64,000 nucleotides of DNA from Chloroflexota bacterium (GTDB lineage Bacteria; Chloroflexota; Anaerolineae; UBA1429): assembly GCA_034722245.1 (NCBI GenBank), contig JAYENT010000091.1, positions 51,492-115,491 on the forward strand. Reading direction: 5' to 3'. The notes below the pieces were generated by a model that saw only the letters and a program-made list of their open reading frames with translations, was not told the origin of the DNA and searched no databases. Made by a program: the position numbers and the translations under genes. Positions within the stretch are counted from its first letter, which is position 1, and the number at the start of each line of letters is the position of its first letter. Below, piece after piece: positions 1 through 42,772 of this stretch.

Positions 1-232
1 CATAGCCTATCCAATCCTCCAGATTTCCCTCGTGAACCTTGTACCGATCAGCAGCAAAATGTCCAAAAGACCCACTGCCGTGGCCCAGCACCAATTGCAT
101 ATCATCCCGAGCATCCAAGGCCATCCGAATCTCTTTGGCGACGCGCGAGATAACGGCAGGCCGAGGCGTTTCATAGCGCCGTTTGTCCGTGATGAGCGAG
201 CCCCCAAGTTTGAGAAAGACGAGTTCGCCCAT
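1..232 (-). CDS. Amino-acid-kinase family protein, isopentenyl phosphate kinase-like (5' fragment; gene runs off the window start)
   Basis: Reverse-strand translation from ATG at 232-230 gives MGELVFLKLGGSLITDK...LVLGHGSGSFGHFAADRY, the KLGGS / GxGxFGH signature of the IPK/FomA kinase family. RBS GGAGG lies about 12 nt upstream inside the rnz 3' end, 6 nt after the rnz stop. Not in the ORF track because it has no in-window stop. Confidence 0.55.
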   Translation of the reverse strand, partial: MGELVFLKLGGSLITDKRRYETPRPAVISRVAKEIRMALDARDDMQLVLGHGSGSFGHFAADRYKVHEGNLEDWIGY

Positions 233-238
233 GGTCAA

Positions 239-1183
239 TCACCTTCCTCCCCGTTCAACCTTGTCCACAGCACCGCGAACGACGCGATAGTGGTCAAGAT
301 CCCGGGGCACAATCGTATCGGGGAAAATGGCCTGAGCCTCTCGCGCGATCTGATACTCCGAGTAACGTCTTGAGATATGGACCAGAAACAGATAGTGCAC
401 CTGGGCGGCATGCGCCAACTCTGCCGCCTCTGCAGCCGTGAGATGGCCAAAGCGATCAGCCAACTCCTTATCACGCGCCAGGTATGTGGATTCGATGACC
501 AGAGCATCCGCCCCGTGACATACATCGAGCAGGTTATCCGTGCGCGCCGCGTCCCCCACATGGACGAGCTTGGTGCCCCTCACCGCTTCGCCCAAAACCT
601 GATCGGGCTCCACAACCGTACCGTCCCCGAGCCTGATCGACTCCCCCCGTACCAGCAAGCCCCTCTCCGGTCCGCGAGGCACTCCCAGGCGCTCTGCTTT
701 CTCCGCCAAGAATGGTCGCCGACTGCTCTCCTCAAACAGGTAGCCATAGCAGCCAGGGCCCCGATGGGTCACGGGGAAAGCCGTGACTTTCATAGCGTCC
801 GACTCCCACACACATCCAGGGCGAATAGCGACCAAGTCCACATCCAGGTGTATATCGTCACCTCGCAAGACAACATCCATCAGGCCTTTGACCCGCTGCA
901 AAGCCCATTCCCCCCCATAGATGCGCAGTGTGGAGATGGACTCCCAGCGCGAAAAAGTGGAAACGAGCCCCCCAAGCCCTAGAATGTGATCCAGATGGCC
1001 GTGCGTCAACAGAATCTTGTCCATCTTTCTGAATCCCATGCCGCTGCGAAGGAGCTGCCGCTGCGTCCCCTCGCCACAATCGACGAGAAAACGCTGATCC
1101 TTATAGAGAACCAGCGCAGAGGACAAACCACGATCAACAGAGGGTGCCGAGGCAGAGGTGCCCAGAAAGACGATCTCAAACAT
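239..1183 (-). CDS. rnz: Ribonuclease Z (tRNA 3'-processing metallo-beta-lactamase endonuclease)
   Basis: 314 aa; MFEIVFLGTSASAP...LVDCGEGTQRQLL...LLTHGHLDHILGLGGL carries the HxHxDH motif and short-form RNase Z architecture. Confidence 0.85.
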   Translation of the reverse strand: MFEIVFLGTSASAPSVDRGLSSALVLYKDQRFLVDCGEGTQRQLLRSGMGFRKMDKILLTHGHLDHILGLGGLVSTFSRWESISTLRIYGGEWALQRVKGLMDVVLRGDDIHLDVDLVAIRPGCVWESDAMKVTAFPVTHRGPGCYGYLFEESSRRPFLAEKAERLGVPRGPERGLLVRGESIRLGDGTVVEPDQVLGEAVRGTKLVHVGDAARTDNLLDVCHGADALVIESTYLARDKELADRFGHLTAAEAAELAHAAQVHYLFLVHISRRYSEYQIAREAQAIFPDTIVPRDLDHYRVVRGAVDKVERGGR

Positions 1184-1323
1184 CCAATGATCGTCTTTCT
1201 GGCATCCCGCTTCCTTGAATCATGATCCTAGCACAGCGAAAACTCGATTCCCACATGGCGTCCCAACATTCCAGCGACAAACAACACCCGGTACGCAACT
1301 GAGCAAGCGCCACGCCCCAAGGC

Positions 1324-3057
1324 CTATTTTTTCTCCACAACGTCTTCCCAGGGGCCTTCAAGTCCATCCTCGTTGACGCCATAATAAACGCGGACGCCTC
1401 CGTCGGGCATCTTTTGCACGAGATCGTAGTGATCTCGCCCTGCTCGCTTGTATTTATGCCAAAGCCCCAGGCTGCCATCCCAGGATACTTTATCTTCATT
1501 GAAAATGCCCTTTTCCTTGAGGGCTATTGCGTAGCGCCATAGCCTTCGAGCGGACGAGCGGGTGACGTCGTCGACCTCATTGCCATTACGCAGATCGCGC
1601 ATGGTATGATACAACTCGCCATTGCGTTTCTCCGACTTGACAATCTCGACGCCCGAGCGGGGAGGCTGCACAGCCCCCTCCGGCGCTTCTATCTCCCTTT
1701 CTCTTTCACGTTCACTTGGCGCCTCGCGTTCCCCCTGCTTCGGCTCTCGCTCAGGGCGTCGTTCCTTTACCAACGGCGGTCCCCCCTCTCTAAGAACCTC
1801 CCCCACAAGGGTAATGATCTGGTCACGCATGGCCAACTCACTCCTCGCCCCCTGGCGAACATAGATCTTGCTTCCCTCAAGCACATAAGGGCGCTCATCG
1901 CCCTGAGGAATGTCTATGCGGATGACATGCTTGCCCTCCGTCTCGAGCGCTGTCATATTGACATCAAGAGGCGGGCTGATCAGACGCTTGATCTCCGAGC
2001 CAAGCCTTCCCATTGCCTGATCTGGATCGCCGACACCTTTAGGAGGAGCCTTAGGATCCGCCTTTACGCCCACATAGATGTGGCCTCCCTTTGTATTAGC
2101 AAAGGCCGCCACATCACGCACGATGGCGTACAAGCATCCGCCCTCACGCTTCATATGCTCATGGAAGCTTCGCTGCTCCGTCTGCCCCGCTTTCCGTGCA
2201 CGCTCCACTTTGCCAGGACGGGCCGGAGCATGCCGCTTGTAAGGACGCGTACGCGAGAAATCATCGGTCAAAAAGAGCTCCTTTAACGCGTCAAAGCTCA
2301 ACTCTGGCAATAGGAAATCCGTAGCGCGATCTCCCACGCCCAAGTGATTTCCCTTGCGGGTAAGGCGATGCGCATCAGAGCCCTGAATACAGTGCATGCG
2401 GCGAGGATACTGCGGCTTGGACCCGTCAAAGAAGGCCTTCGTCGTATGCCTTCCCCGCTTTTCCAGATCTGTGACCTCAAGCGCATGAAGGTTCTCGTTC
2501 TGCGTATAGGATATACGCGTTTGCCCTCCAAAGTTCAATCGCATCATGGCCACACCGTGATTCGAGTCGGCATGGGCCGCAATGACGAGCGCTCCTGCCT
2601 CAGCCATGGTGCGGTAGGCGGTGATGACATCACTTGTGGAGCCGACCTCCGTCTCTCCCTCCCCGATCAAGTCGATGGGCACGTTGAGATCGATCAGTAC
2701 ATGCTCCAGCGCCCTCACGGGAGTATCCTTGTCAAAGATACCCAGAATGTGAAAGCCAAAAGTCGCTGTCAGCTCAAAGCCTGGCAGCACCAGCATCTTG
2801 TCCAGAAGCCGTTGATACTCTTCTAATTGCTGTTCCTCCTCTGGGGTGATTCGCCCCGTCTCCCTCCAACGTTCCAGGTCTGCTATTTCGCGCTGCATCT
2901 CTGCGTAGCCCGCGACAGTATTGTGATCAGTAAAGGCCACTATGCGTAAGCCTTTGGACTCTGCTTGTTTCAGAATATCCAAATATGTGATTTCGGGTTG
3001 TTGATAATCCTTGGAGCCAGGCGTATGTATATGGAGATCGCCTCCATACCATTTCAT
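1324..3057 (-). CDS. PHP-domain metal-dependent phosphoesterase fused to an AlbA_2 (Schlafen-like, 'divergent AAA') domain and an unassigned roughly 100-aa C-terminal domain
   Basis: N-terminal GDLHIHT...FTDHN...AAHADS...IQGSDAH is a PHP histidine/aspartate metal-site pattern. The middle [24 protein letters not shown]...[15 protein letters not shown] is AlbA_2-like. A charged ERERERE linker and a C-terminal domain follow. Start chosen at MKWYGG (3057) because it forms an ATGA overlap with the lon stop; the ORF-track start at 3102 would overlap lon by 49 nt. Confidence 0.7.
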
Positions 3058-5570
3058 GTCCCGATTATCCCGCCCTCCTCTATTTCCATTATTCCTTGCC
3101 ACTTTTTCTTTCCTTCCAAATTGTCGAAAGCGGCCTCAAGAACCTGCTCGACGTGATCGACAAGAATGAACTCCATCTCGTCGCACACTTCCTGAGGCAC
3201 TTCGTCTAAATCCTTTTCGTTTCTCTGCGGTAAACAAACATACTCAAGCCCTGCGCGGTGCGCCGCCAATACCTTTTCCTTGACTCCCCCGACGGGCAAC
3301 ACTTGGCCTCGCAACGTAATCTCGCCAGTCATACCCAGTTTGCCATTCACTGGTACGTCCTTCAGCAGTGAAGCCATGGCCGTACACATGGCCACGCCAG
3401 CAGAAGGCCCATCCTTGGGAATCGCTCCCGCAGGAACATGAAGATGAATATCTATACTGCCAAAAATGTCTTCCTCTATGCCCAGTTCTGCCGCCTTGGA
3501 GCGCACGTAGCTCAGGGCGGCCTGGGCCGACTCTTTCATAACGGTGCCCAACTTGCCCGTCACGGAAAAATTTCCACTTCCTTTCATCTTGGTCGCCTCA
3601 ATGAAGAGAATGTCCCCTCCTGACGGAGTCCACGCTAATCCTGTCGCCACCCCCGGAATTTGGGTACGTTCGGCCACCTCGAAAAAGTAAACGGGCTTGC
3701 CAAGATAATCCGTCACCGTGTCTTCTGAAATGACAAGTTGCCCCGAAAACCCCTCCGCTACTTTGGTGGCTACCTTGCGGCAGATGGCACCAATCCTTCG
3801 TTCCAGTTCACGTACCCCAGCCTCCCGCGTGTATTCCCGTATTATGCGGCGCAGCGCCCCCTGCTCAAAGCTGACCTCGTCAAAACGAAGGCCGTTTTCC
3901 TGGATCTGCCTGGGAATCAAGTACCCCTCAGCGATGGCGACCTTTTCGTGCTCCGTATAGCCGGAAAGCTTGAGCGTCTCCATCCGGTCCTGCAGGGCCG
4001 CAGGGACTGTGTCCAACACGTTGGCGGTCGTGATGAACATAACCTGCGACAGATCAAAGGGAACATCGAGATAATGATCCCGAAACTCGCAGTTCTGCTC
4101 GGGATCTAGCACCTCCAGCAACGCCGATGCGGGATCGCCCCTGAAATCGGATCCTATCTTGTCCACCTCATCCAGCATAAACACTGGATTACGCGAGCCC
4201 ACACGCCGGATAGCCTGGATAATGCGGCCGGGCATGGCCCCAATATAGGTACGACGATGCCCTCGTATCTCGGCCTCGTCATGCATGCCCCCCAGGGATT
4301 GCCTCACGAACTTGCGGCCCAGGGCACGGGCGATGGAACGTCCCAGCGACGTCTTGCCCACACCAGGAGGGCCAACCAAACAGAGAATGACCCCTTCGCG
4401 TTCCCGACGAATGTGATCAACGGACCGATCTTGATGCTCAATTGCTTCCGCCTCGGACTTTCCATCACCACGTTCATGCCGAAGCTTGCGTACGGCAAGG
4501 TACTCGATGATACGATCTTTGACACGTTGAAGATCGTAATGATCCTCATCCAACACGCGACGGGCCGCGCCGATATCCAAATTATCCTCTGTAATTGACT
4601 GCCAAGGCAGCTCCGTGAGCCAGTCCAGATAGGTGCGAATCACCGAATACTCGGCTGCGGCGGGAGGCAGCTTCGCCAGACGATCCAACTCGCGCAGGGC
4701 CTCCGCTTTCGCCTCCTTTGGCATCCCAACGGCCTCTATCTTTTCCTCAAGCTCATGAATCTCTGCTGCTTGCCCATCCTCCTCTCCCAACTCCCTCCTG
4801 ATCGCCTTCAATTGCTCACGCAAAAAGTACTCCCGTTGCACTTCCTCTATGCCAGACTGGGCATCGGACTGGATCTTTCTTCCCAGCTCTAGCACGTCGA
4901 CTTCTCGCGTAAGCGCACTGAAAAGGCGAAAGAGTTTGTCGGTTACACTATCCAACTCCAGAATCTCTTCGCGTACCTCAACGTCCATACGGGTACTGGT
5001 GGCGACCATGTAGGCCAACTGCCTTGGGTCACCGGTATCGAGTACGTTGCCAGCGATCTCTTCGGGAATGTATCCCGCCAGATCCACCAGGCGCTCAAAC
5101 AGATCTCCGATATTGCGCACCAGGGCTTCAACCTCGACGCCAGTCTCTATCGTATCCGGTGCGACTTCAATTTTGGCGCGCATATATGGCTCCAATTGGG
5201 TGAACTCGGATATCCGAATGCGCTCCAAGCCCTGCACAATGACGTGCAACGTGTCATCGGGCGAACGCGCCAACCGATGAATCATGCCGATAGTGCCCAC
5301 CTCATACAGGTCATCTGGCGTGGGGTCCTGAATTGTTGGATCTTTGACAGCCACCAAAGCCACCAATCGATCCGTGAGCACAGTATCATCAATCAAACGT
5401 ACGGAGCGGGGTCTCTCTACCACAAGAGGCAACACTGTTAGAGGAAATATCACAGTATTCCTCAGAGGAAGAACGGGTAATTCGTCAGGAAACGAAAGTT
5501 CATCCTCCATCGACTCGCCAACGATCTCCTCTTCGATTATGCCTTTTCTCAAAAGGCTAGAAAAATCCAT
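3054..5570 (-). CDS. lon: ATP-dependent Lon protease (LonA)
   Basis: 838 aa with a Lon N-domain ([13 protein letters not shown]), AAA+ Walker [10 protein letters not shown], and S16 catalytic DGPSAGVAM...K. Confidence 0.95.
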
Positions 5571-5610
5571 TCCCTTTCACCGCTATCCTGAGCTAACAAT
5601 TCCTACACCC

Positions 5611-5639
5611 ATTGTGCAACCATTGTGGAAAATAGTCAA
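5611..5639 (-). promoter_or_regulatory. Candidate sigma-70 promoter for lon (TTGACT-17-CACAAT) with a tandem 8-nt direct repeat CACAATGG x2
   Basis: Reverse strand reads ccccTTGACTattttccacaatggttgCACAATggg, about 60 nt upstream of the lon ATG; RBS GAAAGGGA precedes the ATG. Confidence 0.35.
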
Positions 5640-5871
5640 GGGGGATATGCAATGCCAGATGCGGGGCCAACACCCATGTGGACTCACGGGCAACGCGTCC
5701 CTATAGCCGCATACCAGATTGCCGACCACATACCAAGCGTGCCCAACAACCCCGAGACGCTGAGTATCACACACGAGCCAAGATTCCCATGAAAAAACCA
5801 CTTACATCAGATATTATATCACATTCACCTGACGAACCCAAATATAGTTGAGCTGCCGCCCGATGCATCTT

Positions 5872-5899
5872 TTGACAAAACTCACGCTTCATCTAAAAT
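5872..5899 (+). promoter_or_regulatory. Candidate sigma-70 promoter (TTGACA-16-TAAAAT) for the DUF89 gene
   Basis: tttTTGACAaaactcacgcttcatcTAAAATgac lies about 145 nt upstream of the 6044 start. Confidence 0.35.
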
Positions 5900-6043
5900 G
5901 ACATGATACGCAAAGTCACTCTATGAATGAGGTGCGTAGCTCACCTGACGCTTTCTCGATTGTGAGGTGATCTACCGGATCAGGGGGCGAGAAGATATGT
6001 ATCTACTATACGCGCGATCCATGGAAAAGACGCTACGAAGCAA

Positions 6044-6916
6044 ATGAGGACATATCCAGACTGCTATCCCTGTTTCATGCGCCAGGCTTTGGAAGCATCT
6101 CGCACTGTTGGGGCTACGCAAGAGGAACAACTTCATCTTCTCAGAAAGGTCATGCAGCAGCTTCTCCGATTGGACACTGACTGCACGCCTCCCGAAATCG
6201 GCCAAGCGGTCCACCGCATGGTTCGGGCCCAGACGGGTGTCGATGATCCCTATTTCCAACTCAAAGCCTACAGCACAGAACGTGCTCTCGCCTTGTACCC
6301 CAGACTCCAGCGCATGGTACGAGAGGCCAAGGATCCCTTTACCTGCGCGGTACGCCTGGCCATTGCAGGCAATATTATCGACTTTGCACAGGCCAACACA
6401 ACAGACAAAGTGAATAGCCTTTGGCCCTATGTTGAGGAAACTCTGCGGCAGCCGTTCACCGTAGATCATACACAAGCACTTAGTGAGGCCTTGAGCACCT
6501 CACGTGAGGTGCTATTCTTGGCTGACAACGCAGGGGAGACGGTGTTTGACCGCATATTGATCGAGAACATAGAAATACCAACCCGCTATGTGGTCAAGGG
6601 AGGCCCCACCATTAATGATGCCGTCGCGGACGATGCCCGACAAGCGGGTATCCATCGCATCGCTGAGGTCGTGAGCAGCGGTTCCGATGCACCCGGAACG
6701 CTACTGAAAGACTGCTCCCCCGAGTTCCTCCATGAATTTCGCAAGGCCTCGGTGATCATTGCCAAGGGGCAGGGCAACTACGAAACACTGAGCGATATCC
6801 GTGCCCCTATTTTCTTCCTCCTGAAGATCAAATGCCCAGTCATTGCAAAGGACATGCGCCTTGGCACGGGGTCTATTATCTGCAAAAGGAGCGAACACTA
6901 TTTTACGAGACCGTAA
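6044..6916 (+). CDS. DUF89/ARMT1-like damage-control phosphatase family protein
   Basis: 290 aa; N-terminal CYPCF motif and overall composition resemble subfamily-I DUF89 proteins; assigned by pattern recall only. Confidence 0.5.
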   Translation: MRTYPDCYPCFMRQALEASRTVGATQEEQLHLLRKVMQQLLRLDTDCTPPEIGQAVHRMVRAQTGVDDPYFQLKAYSTERALALYPRLQRMVREAKDPFTCAVRLAIAGNIIDFAQANTTDKVNSLWPYVEETLRQPFTVDHTQALSEALSTSREVLFLADNAGETVFDRILIENIEIPTRYVVKGGPTINDAVADDARQAGIHRIAEVVSSGSDAPGTLLKDCSPEFLHEFRKASVIIAKGQGNYETLSDIRAPIFFLLKIKCPVIAKDMRLGTGSIICKRSEHYFTRP

Positions 6917-7198
6917 GCTATGTGGCGGGGGGAGTCGGGAGCCCGAGGTGCGCTTCTACAATCGGAAAAACCCGGCATCGCAATGCGCTCCGGGCCTGTT
7001 CTCAAAACCATACCGTATAGTACGCCTAGATTGGATTTTGGCCAGATACTATGCAGAACATATAATTCAAAGAGATGCGGGTACAACGTGCGGGCGGCTC
7101 CAAATTGCAAACCACTACAGGCTGTATCCGAACTTTTACTCTGCATCGAAACTGGATCAAGTACAGACTAAAGAGAATCATATCGAGGAGACGGTGTT

Positions 7199-7603
7199 AT
7201 GAGGATCGCTGTTACATCTGGTGGAGACCACCTGGAAGCTCCCCTATCGCCCGTGTTCGGACGATGCCCGGCCTACCTGCTCGTCGACACGGAGACAATG
7301 GAATACGAGATAGTATCAAATCCCGCCTCTGGCGCCATGGGTGGCGCTGGTGTACAGGCAGCCCAGTTCATAGTCCAAAAAAAGGTTGAGGCCGTAATCA
7401 CCGGCAACATGGGACCTAACGCCTACGCCGTGCTGGAAGCGGCCAACATCCCAACCTATCTTGCAGAGGCAGGAACGGTGCAGCAAGCCATCGACGCCTT
7501 CAAGACGGGAGAGTTGGAAACGGTGGTCAAAGCCAATGTCGCCAGACACTTTGGCACCGGCGGCGGACGGGGGCGGGGTATGGGCAGAGGATGGCGCAGA
7601 TAG
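7199..7603 (+). CDS. NifX/NifB-like dinitrogenase FeMo-cofactor-binding domain protein with a Gly/Arg-rich C-terminal tail
   Basis: 134 aa; MRIAVTSGGDHLEAPLSPVFGRCPAYLLVD...AVITGNMGPNA matches the PF02579 pattern; tail GTGGGRGRGMGRGWRR. Confidence 0.65.
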   Translation: MRIAVTSGGDHLEAPLSPVFGRCPAYLLVDTETMEYEIVSNPASGAMGGAGVQAAQFIVQKKVEAVITGNMGPNAYAVLEAANIPTYLAEAGTVQQAIDAFKTGELETVVKANVARHFGTGGGRGRGMGRGWRR

Positions 7604-7675
7604 GGAACATTCTATCGCTTACCCGGGCCCCAACCTACGTCACCATCGGTCCCTTGTTGAGATGGAAGCGCTTTC

Positions 7676-7704
7676 TTGACCAGGCCGTCTCTCTAAAGTA
7701 CACT
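7676..7704 (+). promoter_or_regulatory. Candidate sigma-70 promoter (TTGACC-17-TACACT), followed by the 6-bp inverted repeat ATGCAC-N7-GTGCAT (7716-7734)
   Basis: cTTGACCaggccgtctctctaaagTACACT lies upstream of the lipoprotein gene; the palindrome is a possible operator. Confidence 0.3.
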
Positions 7705-7738
7705 GGCAAAGCATTATGCACAGCAAACGTGCATAGGT

Positions 7739-9064
7739 ATGGCATGCGAAGCGCGGCCACAAGCCCCCTATCCTTTTGGGGAAGTGCCCTTCTCAGACAT
7801 TCAAGCACCGATCATTTGTCAGCGTATCATCGGGAGACCACTCGAAACCGTGACAAAGCTCGCAATCCCTGAGCACCTAACGTTCCTACTGGCACTCGCA
7901 CTCATCCTCGTGCCTTCCGGCTGCGTCTCCCGCCCTCTTCTGCACGATGTCTCCATACGTCCCCAGACCATATCTCCCAACGCGGACGGCGTGGAGGATG
8001 TCGCAGAGATCAAGTATTCCCTATCAAGACAATCGCGGATCACCATATATCTCGTTGATCAAGATGGCAACCGCCATTACTTTCGGGATGGCAACCGACG
8101 CTCAAAAGGCGAACGCACGGCCTACTTTGGCGGCGTGATCGATGGCACACTCCTGCCCGATGGCCAATACACGTGCTTCTTCGTGGCAGAGGATGAACAC
8201 GGCTACGCTGAACGCCTGGAGACAAAGCTTATAATCTCAGGAGGAGACAAGGTTCCCCTCCGCATCGAAAACCTCAATATCTGGCCTCAAGCGTTCACAC
8301 CCAATCGGGACGGCATTACGGACAGGGTTACCATCGGCTACAACCTCAACAAGCAGGCCGAACTGGTAGAGGTATACTTGCTGGATGATGAGGGTAATAA
8401 ATATCCTGTCCCCGAAGACGAGATCCGCGAGATGGGCGCTCCGGGCACCCACGAACACGATTACGATGCAGGAATCGACCGCGGCGCTACCCCTCCCCCA
8501 GATGGTACCTACATTGTCATCGTGGAGGCGGTGGACGCCGTGGGTAACGAGGCGAAAGAGACAGGTGAATTGACTATACGCGGCGGGGGCGTGCCACGGG
8601 TGGAGATTGTCAACCGTGCAGCGAAATTCTCGCCTCAGGTTGTTTCCCTGGGCGAGACCCTCACATTTACGTGCACAGTAAAGAACATCGGAACCGTGCC
8701 CGTGCGCACCAAAGGGCCAGAGCCGGGAACAACCTATAGCACTTCCCAGAACTTTAATACCCTCGGCGAACATCTGGAGCCAGGTATATTTCGCGTGGGG
8801 CTGGACTTTGAGGGCAATAGTCTGGGGCGCACATATCCTTTTCGGTGGCAACTGGGGATGGATGAGGATCTTGAGGTAATAGAGACAGAGATCGGTTACG
8901 AGAAGTACCTCATGCCCGACCATACGGTCACCGTCGTGGGGCATTTGCGCATCGACGACCGCCCCTTCGACGCCAAACCCTACTACTGGATAGGGTTGAT
9001 CCATGAGGAAGTGGAAATCGTTCAGGACAACGTCGAGCCCACACAGATCGCCATCGCCTTCTAA
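7739..9064 (+). CDS. Secreted lipoprotein with two FlgD-Ig-like repeats and a CARDB-like C-terminal domain
   Basis: The signal/lipobox LTFLLALALILVPSGC suggests the true start is near GTG around 7850. Repeats are SPNADGVEDVAEIKYSL...IYLVDQDGN and TPNRDGITDRVTIGYNL...VYLLDDEGN; the later block PQVVSLGETLTFTCTVKNIGTVPV is CARDB-like. Confidence 0.6.
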   Translation: MACEARPQAPYPFGEVPFSDIQAPIICQRIIGRPLETVTKLAIPEHLTFLLALALILVPSGCVSRPLLHDVSIRPQTISPNADGVEDVAEIKYSLSRQSRITIYLVDQDGNRHYFRDGNRRSKGERTAYFGGVIDGTLLPDGQYTCFFVAEDEHGYAERLETKLIISGGDKVPLRIENLNIWPQAFTPNRDGITDRVTIGYNLNKQAELVEVYLLDDEGNKYPVPEDEIREMGAPGTHEHDYDAGIDRGATPPPDGTYIVIVEAVDAVGNEAKETGELTIRGGGVPRVEIVNRAAKFSPQVVSLGETLTFTCTVKNIGTVPVRTKGPEPGTTYSTSQNFNTLGEHLEPGIFRVGLDFEGNSLGRTYPFRWQLGMDEDLEVIETEIGYEKYLMPDHTVTVVGHLRIDDRPFDAKPYYWIGLIHEEVEIVQDNVEPTQIAIAF

Positions 9065-10822: not shown

Positions 10823-11194
10823 ATGGTGGAACTGAGCGAGGAACGCTTTGAAGAGATCGTCGCCCAAACCCTGGATGATGTACCAGAGTGGATAAGTCAC
10901 AGAATGCAGAACGTGGCCATCGTCATTCGCCCCTGGCCAAGCCCCCAGCAGGTACACAAAACCCGGACGAAGGGTAGAATGCTGCTTGGTCTGTACGAAG
11001 GGGTGCCCCTCACAAGACGGGGGCATGCATATCGACTCGTTCCCCCGGACCGGATAACCCTCTTCCAGCAGCCCCTGCAGCGCGCCGCGCGCGACCAACA
11101 GGAGCTTGTGCAGTTGGTGCGCAGGACGGTCATCCACGAGATCGGCCATCACTTTGGCCTGTCAGAAAAAGATCTCAGCAGATTAGGGCTCTGA
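10823..11194 (+). CDS. Zincin-like metallopeptidase (DUF1025/Zincin_1-type, HExxH)
   Basis: VIHEIGHHFGLSE motif near the C-terminus. Start set at MVELSEE (10823), 17 nt after the GT2 stop, rather than the overlapping ORF-track start at 10724. Confidence 0.6.
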   Translation: MVELSEERFEEIVAQTLDDVPEWISHRMQNVAIVIRPWPSPQQVHKTRTKGRMLLGLYEGVPLTRRGHAYRLVPPDRITLFQQPLQRAARDQQELVQLVRRTVIHEIGHHFGLSEKDLSRLGL

Positions 11195-40205: not shown

Positions 40206-41150
40206 ATGCAAATCATCGGAAACCTTTTGGCCTATGAACCATCCCACAGCGCCGTCCTGACCATCGGTTCCTTCGACGGTATCCATCGGGGGCATCAACA
40301 CCTGCTGACCAAGCTCGTACAACGCGCCAAAGAGACCCAGCGGTTGAGCGCTGTCCTCACGTTTCATCCCCATCCTGAGGCAGTCGTGCACCCCGAAAAG
40401 CGCCCCCAATATCTTAGCAGCCCCCAAGAGCGCACAGAGATCTTCGAGGATCTTTGTCTCGATCTCTTATTCTTGATACCTTTCAGCCAAGAGCTGGCCC
40501 AAACTTCGGCACAGGATCTACTAACCATGCTCCACGACCGCCTACGGATGCGAGAGTTCTGGGTAGGACCCGACTTTGCCATGGGACGAGATCGTGAAGG
40601 TGATATTGCCACCTTGCGCCATCTCTCCACAGAGATAGGCTATGAGTTGCGTGTTCTGAGCCCCTTGTGCGAGGGGGGAAGGCCCATCAGCAGCACCAGG
40701 ATCCGCATGCTGCTTTCGGAGGGACGGGTGCGGGATGCGGCGGCACTCCTGGGACGCCCCTACACAATCTCTGGGCGCGTGGTCAAGGGCGCCCAGAGGG
40801 GACGCTCCTTGGGCTTCCGCACCGCTAACCTGGAGGTCGAGCCCCAAAGAGCTCTGCCCAGAAGGGGTGTCTATGCCGCCTGGGCTCTCCTGCACAGGGA
40901 GCGGCAGGAATGCGTGGTCAATGTGGGGGCGCGCCCTACCTTTGACGACCAGGATTTGCTGGTTGAGGCTCATCTCCTCGACTATGAAGGCGATCTCTAC
41001 GGGAAGGAACTCTGTATTGAGTTCGTGCGGCGGCTACGGGCAGAGAAACGGTTCTCTGACGCGGGCGCCTTGATCGACCAGCTTCGTCAGGACGTAGCGG
41101 TCGCCCGTGAGATCCTCGGCGAAAGACAGAAAAGGGCCGTGACTCCGTGA
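40206..41150 (+). CDS. ribF: Bifunctional riboflavin kinase/FAD synthetase
   Basis: GSFDGIHRGHQ nucleotidyltransferase motif plus a C-terminal riboflavin kinase domain (GRPYTISGRVVKGAQRGRSLGFRTANL). Confidence 0.9.
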   Translation: MQIIGNLLAYEPSHSAVLTIGSFDGIHRGHQHLLTKLVQRAKETQRLSAVLTFHPHPEAVVHPEKRPQYLSSPQERTEIFEDLCLDLLFLIPFSQELAQTSAQDLLTMLHDRLRMREFWVGPDFAMGRDREGDIATLRHLSTEIGYELRVLSPLCEGGRPISSTRIRMLLSEGRVRDAAALLGRPYTISGRVVKGAQRGRSLGFRTANLEVEPQRALPRRGVYAAWALLHRERQECVVNVGARPTFDDQDLLVEAHLLDYEGDLYGKELCIEFVRRLRAEKRFSDAGALIDQLRQDVAVAREILGERQKRAVTP

Positions 41151-41326
41151 CATCCTGTGAGCTGCCCTCTAGCATCCGTACGCTATGGCTGCTTCACAAA
41201 AAGGATAGCCAGAAGAGAGAAACGGGGGAAAATATCGCAGTTGTGCTTTACACAGCCGCGATATATAGTACCCCCTACTCATATATGACATGCCAGAGAG
41301 CGCCCGCGAAGGAAGGAGGGATCGAA

Positions 41327-42772
41327 ATGCTCAGTAAAGACGTGCTGATCCAAATCGCTCCACGTCTTTATGAAATCCCCACAAGCTACAGAGATGATAT
41401 GCGCGTTCCCGCCAGGCTCTATGCGGACGAGGAGATCGTAGAAGCGGCCCTGGGGGACGGCTCCATAGAGCAACTTATCAACACATCGACTCTCCCCGGC
41501 GTGGTCAAGTACACTCTGGCCATGCCCGACATTCATCAGGGGTATGGTTTCCCCATTGGAGGGGTGGCAGCCACTGCTCTGCCAGATGGCGTAATTTCTC
41601 CAGGCGGCGTGGGCTACGACATCAACTGCGGGGTGCGCCTGCTGACCAGCACCATTGAGGTCGGGGCCGCCCGTCCCCATATGGTCCAGCTTATGGACAG
41701 CCTCGTTGAGAGCATACCCACGGGGGTCGGGGCGAGGGGCACCTTTCGCCTTTCAAAGGGTGAACTCTACCTGCTCCTGGAACAGGGCTCGAGTTGGGTG
41801 GTGGGCATGGGCTATGGCCGGCAAGAAGACCTGGAGCATACCGAGGATGAGGGCCGCATGGAGGCGGCCAATATAGAAGCCCTCAGCCGCCGCGCCATAG
41901 ATCGGGGACACAGACAGGTGGGCACCCTGGGCGCGGGTAACCACTTTGTTCAGGTCGACGAGATCGCTCAGATATACGATGAGGAAGCGGCCGAGGCGCT
42001 GAATCTGGTGAAAGGCCAGGTGTGCGTCTGGATTCATGCCGGCTCTCGCGGTTTGGGCCACCAGGTATGCATCGATGCCATCAAGATGGTACAGGAGGCC
42101 AAGTACAACATAGACACCCCTGATCCAGAGTTGGCCTCCATCCCCTTTTCGTCGCAGGAGGGCCAAAAGTATTTCCAAGCCATGTCCTGTGCCGCAAACT
42201 TTGCCTGGGCCAACCGCCAAGCCATCACCCATCTGATACGACGCAGCTTTGAGGAGGTCTTTAGCGGACACGTCAGGAGCTACGATTTGCGCGTGGCCTA
42301 CGATGTCTGTCATAATATAGCCAATATTGAGGAGCACGAGGTGGCGGGCGAGCCGACAAGGATGTGCGTGCATCGCAAGGGGGCCACGAGGGCCTTGGGG
42401 CCCGGCCATAGGGCGATAGCCGAGACGTACCGCGCCTTCGGGCAGCCGGTCTTTATTCCGGGCGACATGGAGAGGGGATCATACATCCTGCTTGCCACAG
42501 AAAAGGCGACGAAAGAGGCCTTTGGTAGTATTTGCCATGGGGCCGGGCGTCTCATAAGTCGCTCAAAGGCACGCGAAACGGTTTCTGGAGAGGATCTGCA
42601 CCAGCATCTGGAGAACAGTGGCATCATCGTGCGCTCCGGCAACTTGTCCGGGCTGGCCGAGGAAGCGCCACAAGCTCACAAAAATGTGCACCATATCGTG
42701 GATGTGGTGGAAGACGCTGGGCTGTGCCGCAGGGTGGCGCGCACGGTGCCGTTGGGCGTCATCAAAGGCTAA
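41327..42772 (+). CDS. rtcB: RNA-splicing ligase RtcB (3'-phosphate/5'-OH RNA ligase)
   Basis: [13 protein letters not shown]...[11 protein letters not shown]...[13 protein letters not shown]...HNIA metal/GMP site pattern. Start at MLSKDV (41327) has RBS GAAGGAGGG; the ORF-track N-terminal extension to 41147 is unlikely. Confidence 0.85.

Follow-up and report, generated by a model that had tools for sequence, protein, structure and literature searches.

The first ~5.6 kb of a 64,000-nucleotide stretch of DNA from a Chloroflexota bacterium (contig JAYENT010000091.1 of assembly GCA_034722245.1; the whole stretch is termed the window in the following) carry four reverse-strand genes, one of which encodes a protein that combines a PHP metal-dependent phosphoesterase/exonuclease domain with a Schlafen-like AlbA_2 domain. 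We favor the reading that an ancestral stress operon ended with this PHP/AlbA_2 gene, preceded by hsp20, lon, and a gene for a response regulator consisting of a receiver (REC) domain only, and that the PHP/AlbA_2 gene product is a nucleic acid-directed PHP enzyme inherited vertically, mainly in Anaerolineae; the chances of this reading are about even. The parts of the system are of known kinds, whereas the architecture of the protein, its C-terminal domain, and the Lon-centered operon are new. The coordinates of all features are given in Table 1. Residue numbers refer to the 577-amino-acid form of the protein, and related loci and proteins are designated by L and P numbers.

Gene neighborhood and conservation

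The protein belongs to a large family, since 7013 of the 8000 candidates scored were matches, and it occurs in at least 590 GTDB species. The neighborhood counts cover 80 loci, the best among at least 590 genomic matches. All open reading frames (ORFs) of these 80 loci were clustered, and loci with enough flanking sequence are termed informative. The recurrent order is hsp20, lon, REC, and the PHP/AlbA_2 gene. Among 81 loci, 57 have a cluster for hsp20, 67 for lon, and 59 for REC, and no other flanking cluster is present in more than 29; HSP20, Response_reg, and GNAT were confirmed in the neighboring genes by Pfam. Of 63 informative loci, 47 have lon upstream of the PHP/AlbA_2 gene on the same strand at a distance of up to 1.2 kb, and 54 at up to 5 kb; REC is found directly upstream in 55 of 78. 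The junctions within the block can be very tight (−4, −4, and −4 nt in L072), and the synteny is stable over at least 80 species. Full-length identities to the window protein range from 51% to 62%, those of Lon in the same genomes from 59% to 73% (r = 0.64). The protein is under strong constraint and has been passed on jointly with lon.

Chloroflexota is the label of 79 of the 80 best loci, mostly of the Anaerolineae type, and one divergent cluster represents Candidatus Chloroheliales. The exception, L015, is labeled Alphaproteobacteria (CAVOQM010000017.1, a metagenome-assembled genome named "uncultured Alphaproteobacteria"). It contains the hsp20-lon-PHP/AlbA_2 block with 55% identity and a lon split into several ORFs, and it is probably a mislabeled or contaminated bin with frameshifts.

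The original prediction had named the conservation of a lon-PHP/AlbA_2-rnz linkage across Chloroflexota as a check on its functional inference. The lon half of this linkage is supported by the 54 of 63 informative loci and by three of five divergent long-form relatives; these three (906 to 1358 amino acids) have lon immediately upstream. The rnz half did not hold. Of 68 informative loci, no more than 8 have rnz downstream; these belong without exception to the sub-lineage of the window and usually carry a GNAT acetyltransferase gene in between. Since the rnz adjacency is confined to this sub-lineage, it is a lineage-specific feature, and RNase Z and the isopentenyl phosphate kinase (IPK)-like protein encoded next to it are probably recent neighbors rather than functional partners.

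In the sub-lineage of the window (L001–L004, L006–L008, and L038), REC is gone and lon abuts the PHP/AlbA_2 gene. Most of these loci have the order GNAT-rnz(-IPK) downstream, with complete IPK orthologues (268 amino acids) behind rnz in L001–L003 and L006. L005 shares this type of downstream order, but lon is not nearby. Starting from an ancestral order hsp20-lon-REC-PHP/AlbA_2, the sub-lineage would have lost REC and the window hsp20 as well; as a result of the REC loss, lon would now overlap the PHP/AlbA_2 gene directly.

In the receiver consensus of 55 sequences, the acidic pocket (DDD), the Asp of the phosphorylation site, the Ser, and the Lys of the KPF motif are all retained. Judged by these residues, REC is a canonical phospho-acceptor receiver that should be phosphorylatable. 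In loci devoid of lon, REC and the PHP/AlbA_2 gene still form a pair, and in two of these loci a hybrid histidine kinase (REC-HisKA-HATPase_c; L044, 5684–6802, and L077, 4267–5547) is encoded 0.8 to 1.6 kb upstream of the pair. Long REC-containing ORFs were also observed 2.4 to 4.7 kb downstream in L010, L036, L059, L068, and L069. A fusion of REC to the PHP protein ("Rosetta stone") was not present in the 10 longest relatives.

In the three divergent long-form relatives with lon upstream, the PHP/AlbA_2 gene is followed by a gene for a YgjP/SprT-like zincin with an HExxH motif. This second protease partner of another lineage is located at 11084–11641 in L085, 10973–11515 in L087, and 9802–10338 in L088. 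It was found only in these three long-form loci and was absent near the gene in the Anaerolineae loci.

The PHP domain

The N-terminal part of the protein was assigned to the PHP family by several lines of evidence, although the Pfam model (PF02811) remained below its gathering threshold (22.6 versus 26.4 bits) and matched only residues 7–61 with the first motif. In NCBIfam, residues 2–263 align to the N-terminal PHP modules of TrlF (E 3e-25), Ppl (E 3e-22), and Spaf_1101, and a partial Ppl match to the domain was obtained with PADLOC (1.4e-20). The AlphaFold2 (AF2) model of the protein has a predicted local distance difference test score (pLDDT) of 83.9, with values mostly above 90 in the PHP region, which carries a helical-hairpin insert (residues 49–87). 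The Foldseek matches of the domain comprise RNase AM (7ug9, E 8e-8), 3o0f, 9etk, the pAp phosphatase 2yb1, and the PHP domain of Pol III alpha. In alignments of 22 and 69 sequences, the metal ligands H11, D44, H45, E95, H162, D228, and H230 are invariant, and H9 and D17 are conserved to at least 90%.

These features identify a PHP domain of the Ppl/TrlF exonuclease type with an intact metal site, which is the only predicted catalytic centre of the protein. The PHP domain of Ppl is a single-stranded DNA (ssDNA) 3'-5' exonuclease (PMC12904381). The nearest solved PHP folds (7ug9, 9etk, and 2yb1), those of RNase AM (YciV/TrpH) and the pAp phosphatase Cv1693, share the HxH and DxH motifs with the domain; RNase AM, the best match, degrades RNA as an exoribonuclease. 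However, the identity is only 16–18%, and those enzymes are single-domain proteins without nucleic acid-binding appendages or a link to Lon.

The AlbA_2 domain

The AlbA_2 family (PF04326) matched residues 301–408 with 66.6 bits (gathering threshold 25.3, E 3.6e-18), and Foldseek retrieved DIP2311 (3lmm), 2kyy, SLFN5, and the tRNase domain of SAMD9. The best bacterial structural matches are thus COG2865-type proteins (DIP2311 and the RecG-related 2kyy). Those proteins continue into HATPase_c_4 and a winged helix-turn-helix, whereas here AlbA_2 comes after the PHP domain and leads into a disordered linker and a beta-rich domain of unrelated type; neither HATPase_c_4 nor the winged helix gave a Pfam match in residues 410–577, even at E 10. 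The AlbA_2 fold and the Pfam family are also common to Schlafen-type nucleases (SLFN11/12/13, SAMD9, and prokaryotic Cash), whose catalytic triad is E-x4-E/D-x-K (E17/D22/K24 in CbCash; PMC13462974). The sequence ESTHVEIK of SLFN12 aligns to QSFHExM(T/K) in the present family, and the alignment with 2kyy gives the same register. The first triad position is a Q, the second is never acidic among 22 sequences, and the third is usually a T. The triad is therefore replaced by Q...x.(T/K) family-wide, and a sensor domain of the CARF or Csx15 type is not present here. Because the triad is missing, a Schlafen-like cleavage of tRNA is not expected, and the domain is likely a non-catalytic binding module.

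The linker and the C-terminal domain

The linker between AlbA_2 and the C-terminal domain varies in length from 23 to 112 amino acids across the family and is predicted to be disordered at residues 426–454. The C-terminal domain (~110 amino acids) was modeled on its own with an AF2 pLDDT of 94 and the topology beta3-alpha-beta4-alpha. Searches with this domain returned nothing relevant in Pfam up to E 10, nothing in the PDB sequence profiles (E at least 0.3), and nothing among the viral structures of BFVD. SsgB, the best Foldseek match in the PDB, was rejected as a fold assignment (E 0.013, template modeling score 0.29, root-mean-square deviation 14 Å).

When the profile of the C-terminal domain was run against 1.84 billion representatives, 307 clusters were obtained, nearly all in combination with AlbA_2 and PHP. 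AlbA_2 was present in 54 of the 70 longer proteins among the matches; in the ten proteins scanned closely, which included the longest, AlbA_2 was detected in all and PHP in nine. The median isoelectric point of the domain is 9.5 across the family, and some members contain three tandem copies. The restriction to this family, the basic character, and the tandem copies characterize the domain as a family-specific, basic, and repeatable module. Low-complexity N- or C-terminal extensions of several hundred residues were seen in other members; P0183, P0201, P0217, and P0227 are examples of these two kinds of enlarged proteins.

The domain assignments made earlier from the DNA letters, namely PHP, AlbA_2, an E/R-rich repeat linker, and an unassigned C-terminal domain, are thus all corroborated, and so is the claim that their fusion is uncharacterized. 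The literature search yielded no paper joining a PHP domain with AlbA_2, none describing TrlF, and none on an Anaerolineae hsp20-lon-REC operon. Database names of the family members are generic ("hypothetical", "putative DNA/RNA-binding", "PHP domain-containing", and in some cases "transcriptional regulator" or "putative DNA binding domain-containing protein").

Translation start and overlap with lon

At the junction of lon and the PHP/AlbA_2 gene (gggacATGAaatgg), an ATG at 3057 overlaps the lon TGA (3056–3054), and the NCBI annotation follows this 577-amino-acid form (P0001). The longest ORF begins at a GTG at 3102. All nine closest relatives share with the window a GTG that is located 19 to 22 codons before the DLHxHT motif and has GGAAGGA ~8 nt ahead of it. 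The tail encoded from the GTG is conserved in these relatives (V-A/T/S-R-(R/N/K/S)), and distant homologues also have an R/K-rich tail, several of them without a Met at the "MxW" position. L001 lacks any start codon where the window has ATG 3057. Since the GTG, a Shine–Dalgarno-like sequence, and the basic tail are conserved and L001 has no start at the ATG position, ATG 3057 is probably not the true start, and translation would begin at GTG 3102 to give a product of 592 amino acids. The ATGA overlap at 3054–3057, on which the original prediction had based a translational coupling, therefore exists, but it is not a conserved feature, and the overlap comprises 49 nt instead of 4 (38 to 62 nt in relatives). 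As the two genes overlap with either start, translational coupling is still plausible. Bacterial operons frequently contain such start/stop overlaps; the overlap alone is for this reason unremarkable, and the weight lies with the conserved synteny.

The C-terminal tail of Lon, in which the next gene overlaps, is not a conserved part of the protein. In the nine closest relatives, both frames of the overlap (3054–3102), i.e., the Lon tail and the basic N-terminal tail, are conserved. The Shine–Dalgarno sequence of the downstream gene falls within the lon codons for ...EG(N/K)....

Organization of the window

Table 1. Features of the lon–PHP/AlbA_2 locus (window coordinates)
Feature	Position	Strand	Basis or remark
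IPK-like gene, 5' part, truncated by the window edge	1..232	−	AA_kinase E 4.5e-8, IPPK_Arch E 1.3e-15
rnz (RNase Z, 314 amino acids)	239..1183	−	NF000801 255.9 versus cut-off 252
Spacer of 140 nt between PHP/AlbA_2 gene stop and rnz	1184..1323	−	GNAT acetyltransferase gene at this place in relatives
PHP-AlbA_2-linker-C-terminal-domain gene	1324..3102	−	ORF and family alignments; GTG 3102 preferred (592 amino acids), ATG 3057 alternative (577 amino acids)
New basic C-terminal domain, residues 466–577	1327..1662	−	AF2 model
Disordered E/R/P-rich linker, residues 425–465	1663..1785	−	pLDDT <50
AlbA_2/Schlafen-like domain, residues 283–424	1786..2211	−	PF04326
PHP metal-dependent phosphoesterase/exonuclease domain, residues 1–275	2233..3057	−	NCBIfam, PADLOC, fold
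Dual-coding overlap of lon 3' end and next gene start, 49 nt, including ATGA 3054–3057	3054..3102	−	Sequence and relatives
lon (LonA ATP-dependent protease, 838 amino acids)	3054..5570	−	TIGR00763 936 bits versus cut-off 608; Pfam LON_substr_bdg, AAA, Lon_lid, Lon_C
Short basic N-terminal tail, 15 residues	3058..3102	−	R/K/N/G-rich tails alike in relatives
Shine–Dalgarno-like GGAAGGA	3111..3117	−	8 nt before GTG 3102; kept in L001–L004, L006, L008, L038
Promoter-like site TTGACT-17-CACAAT before lon	5611..5639	−	Consensus scan only

The gene positions predicted for the locus were confirmed: the lon reading frame, an rnz gene exactly 140 nt behind the PHP/AlbA_2 stop codon, and an IPK-like amino acid kinase gene 6 nt past the rnz stop, which runs off the window. 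Lon of the window is a LonA protein with the N-terminal domain, the AAA+ module, and the S16 protease domain, and it passes the equivalog cut-off of TIGR00763. RNase Z passes the equivalog model NF000801 and is slightly under the cut-off of TIGR02651 (269.4 versus 292.95). The IPK-like ORF starts at 232, separated from the rnz TGA by the six nucleotides ttgacc. A terminator-like site, an Rfam match, and a GNAT remnant were sought in the spacer between the PHP/AlbA_2 gene and rnz, and none of them was found. No terminator-like site is predicted between any of the four genes, and it is plausible that they form one operon. The Rfam scan of positions 1–8000 gave no families, and the tRNA genes of the window are located far from the locus, at 47.8 and 56.5 kb only. 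Homologues of hsp20, REC, or GNAT, i.e., displaced copies, were not found elsewhere in the 64 kb.

The position occupied by hsp20 in relatives is taken in the window by a gene divergent from lon that encodes an ARMT1-like damage-control phosphatase (6044–6916(+); PF01937, E 5.6e-65). It is followed by a gene for a small protein similar to dinitrogenase FeMo-cofactor-binding proteins (7199–7603(+); PF02579, E 2.6e-23) and an ORF of 441 amino acids (7739–9064). The RNA ligase RtcB is encoded at 41327–42772(+), on the opposite strand and 38 kb from the PHP/AlbA_2 gene, and is unlinked to it, as had been noted before. Directly before rtcB (PF01139, E 1e-155) lies ribF for FAD synthetase/riboflavin kinase (window 40206–42772(+) for both genes), and the longest ORF of RtcB (GTG 41147) shares 4 nt with the ribF stop.

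In relatives, a conserved promoter-like motif with an extended −10 element, TTGAG-N13-TGTGGTAnAAT, is located upstream of hsp20. The form TTGAG-N13-TGTGGTA(A/C/T/G)AAT was detected in ~45 of 57 loci (L002–L079), ~100 to 350 nt before the region encoding the WRPP motif of hsp20. Several loci share TTCTAC...CTCTTATTGAG just before the promoter motif, which could be an operator.

Proposed role and alternative explanations

The conserved partners, a small heat-shock protein and REC, point to an operon for stress response and proteostasis rather than for RNA repair. We infer from sequence and gene order that the PHP/AlbA_2 protein is a nucleic acid-directed exonuclease or phosphodiesterase co-expressed with the protein quality control machinery. 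Its fixed architecture consists of a basic N-terminal tail, the PHP domain, a nuclease-dead AlbA_2 domain, the disordered linker, and the basic C-terminal domain. The protein would be produced alongside Lon and the small heat-shock protein. A nucleic acid (ssDNA or RNA/tRNA) would be bound through AlbA_2 and the C-terminal domain, and the PHP domain would trim or dephosphorylate its ends. Candidate substrates are ssDNA, the ends of RNA or tRNA, and adducts between protein and nucleic acid. In most lineages, the phosphorylated receiver may gate the activity or the hand-over to Lon. Single-domain response regulators are known as protease adaptors, as in the cases of CpdR and RssB, both acting with ClpXP. 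By analogy, a REC-only protein with intact phospho-acceptor chemistry is here encoded directly after the gene of an AAA+ protease. Binding of REC to Lon would be an analogy only, however, and in loci with lon elsewhere REC still accompanies the PHP/AlbA_2 gene.

Several observations weigh against this reading. The window itself lacks hsp20 and REC, and also GNAT. Co-transcription and stress induction are deduced only from the order of the genes and from the fact that hsp20 and lon are among them; upstream of hsp20 in relatives and of lon in the window, no CIRCE or HAIR operators were found apart from one weak HAIR-like match. The relatives of the PHP domain are diverse: some are exonucleases acting on DNA or on RNA, and others, like the pAp phosphatase 2yb1, dephosphorylate small molecules. 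The geometry between the domains is unreliable in the AF2 model (predicted template modeling score 0.54). Furthermore, lon is not nearby in ~14% of the informative loci (9 of 63) and in two of the five divergent relatives, and the link to lon is therefore not obligatory. Finally, common ancestry could account in part for a gene order conserved inside one phylum.

The last two points also favor the assumption that there is no functional link at all, i.e., that the adjacency to lon was simply inherited as gene order and the protein has a function of its own, for instance as a general nanoRNase or pAp phosphatase; all data are derived from one phylum. However, the block was kept while its flanks were scrambled, its junctions are short or overlapping, and the divergent long-form lineage has retained the link although its third partner is another one. 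We regard an independent protein as unlikely, although it retains some weight.

A role as a DNA-binding regulator of the hsp20-lon operon, with the PHP domain sensing or hydrolyzing a small-molecule signal, has a rather small chance of being correct. Database names suggest a regulator, AlbA_2 is the N-terminal module of the COG2865-type predicted regulators (3lmm, 2kyy), the C-terminal domain is basic, and the gene adjoins a response regulator. On the other hand, the protein contains neither a helix-turn-helix nor HATPase_c_4, its C-terminal domain is beta-rich without a winged-helix match, and the PHP module is, over its full length, nearest to PHP domains of the exonuclease type. The region upstream of hsp20 displays no conserved operator beyond the plain promoter. 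The invariance of the PHP metal site and the missing helix-turn-helix make a pure regulator improbable.

Similarly small is the probability we assign to a more specific proposal, in which a module coupled to Lon clears covalent or trapped protein–nucleic acid complexes (DNA–protein crosslinks, stalled peptidyl-tRNA, or RNA–protein adducts) as a bacterial counterpart of SPRTN and TDP1. The protein part would be degraded by Lon and, in some lineages, by the SprT/YgjP-like zincin as well. The PHP/AlbA_2 enzyme, tethered to the nucleic acid via its Schlafen-like and C-terminal domains, would take off what is left or trim the end, and a REC phosphorelay would control the process. Lon has been reported to clear DNA-bound proteins (bioRxiv 10.1101/317677). 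As in the crosslink repair by SPRTN/Wss1 with TDP1, one or more proteases would be combined with a nucleic acid phosphodiesterase, here as co-encoded genes; however, there is no homology to TDP1/2, and the likeness stems from the gene context.

The original prediction, a tRNA or RNA end-processing or repair module made up of a PHP end phosphoesterase, a Schlafen-like tRNA binder, and RNase Z, with its abundance tied to Lon, could not be upheld, and only a slim chance is left to it. The four genes of the window are contiguous on one strand without a predicted terminator, RNase AM is among the PHP relatives, and tRNA nucleases are among the AlbA_2 relatives (PMC13462974). The proposal rested on the rnz adjacency, which is found in close relatives only, and the Schlafen triad is absent. 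In contrast to RNA repair operons of the Rtc or Pnkp/Hen1 type, no ligase, cyclase, or kinase-phosphatase gene is adjacent, and RtcB is encoded at a distance on the other strand.

Very improbable is an anti-phage or abortive-infection effector restrained by Lon, composed of a Ppl-like PHP nuclease and a Schlafen-like domain: the best sequence matches of the PHP domain are the defense proteins Ppl and TrlF/Spaf_1101, and many prokaryotic Schlafen proteins are associated with defense (PMC13462974), but the scores are far under the cut-offs (TrlF, 89 versus 350 bits; Ppl, 78 versus 1000), the ATPase part is missing, no defense genes were seen in the neighborhoods examined, and the vertical, near class-wide inheritance with stable synteny, the slow evolution, and the canonical LonA next to it argue against such a role. 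Ppl, an anti-phage protein of E. coli, and TrlF/Spaf_1101 are AAA-like ATPases with a homologous N-terminal PHP module of ~260 residues. Only positions 4–264 of 944 and 3–231 of 882 of the TrlF and Ppl profile models, respectively, were matched, and Pfam revealed no ATPase domain. AlbA_2 and the new C-terminal domain replace the ATPase, and the gene is part of a vertically inherited lon operon instead of being a mobile single-gene defense system.

Implications

The analysis corrects the likely start codon of the gene and removes a misleading association with RNase Z. The C-terminal domain defines a new domain family, and the protein would represent a case in which bacteria employ a Schlafen-like module outside defense, apparently for housekeeping. 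Very few dedicated partners or adaptors are, to our knowledge, described for Lon, although this protease is central to the stress response. Here, throughout a bacterial class and also outside it, Lon is encoded alongside an enzyme under strong constraint, and this arrangement is a concrete candidate for a link between proteolysis and nucleic acid processing.

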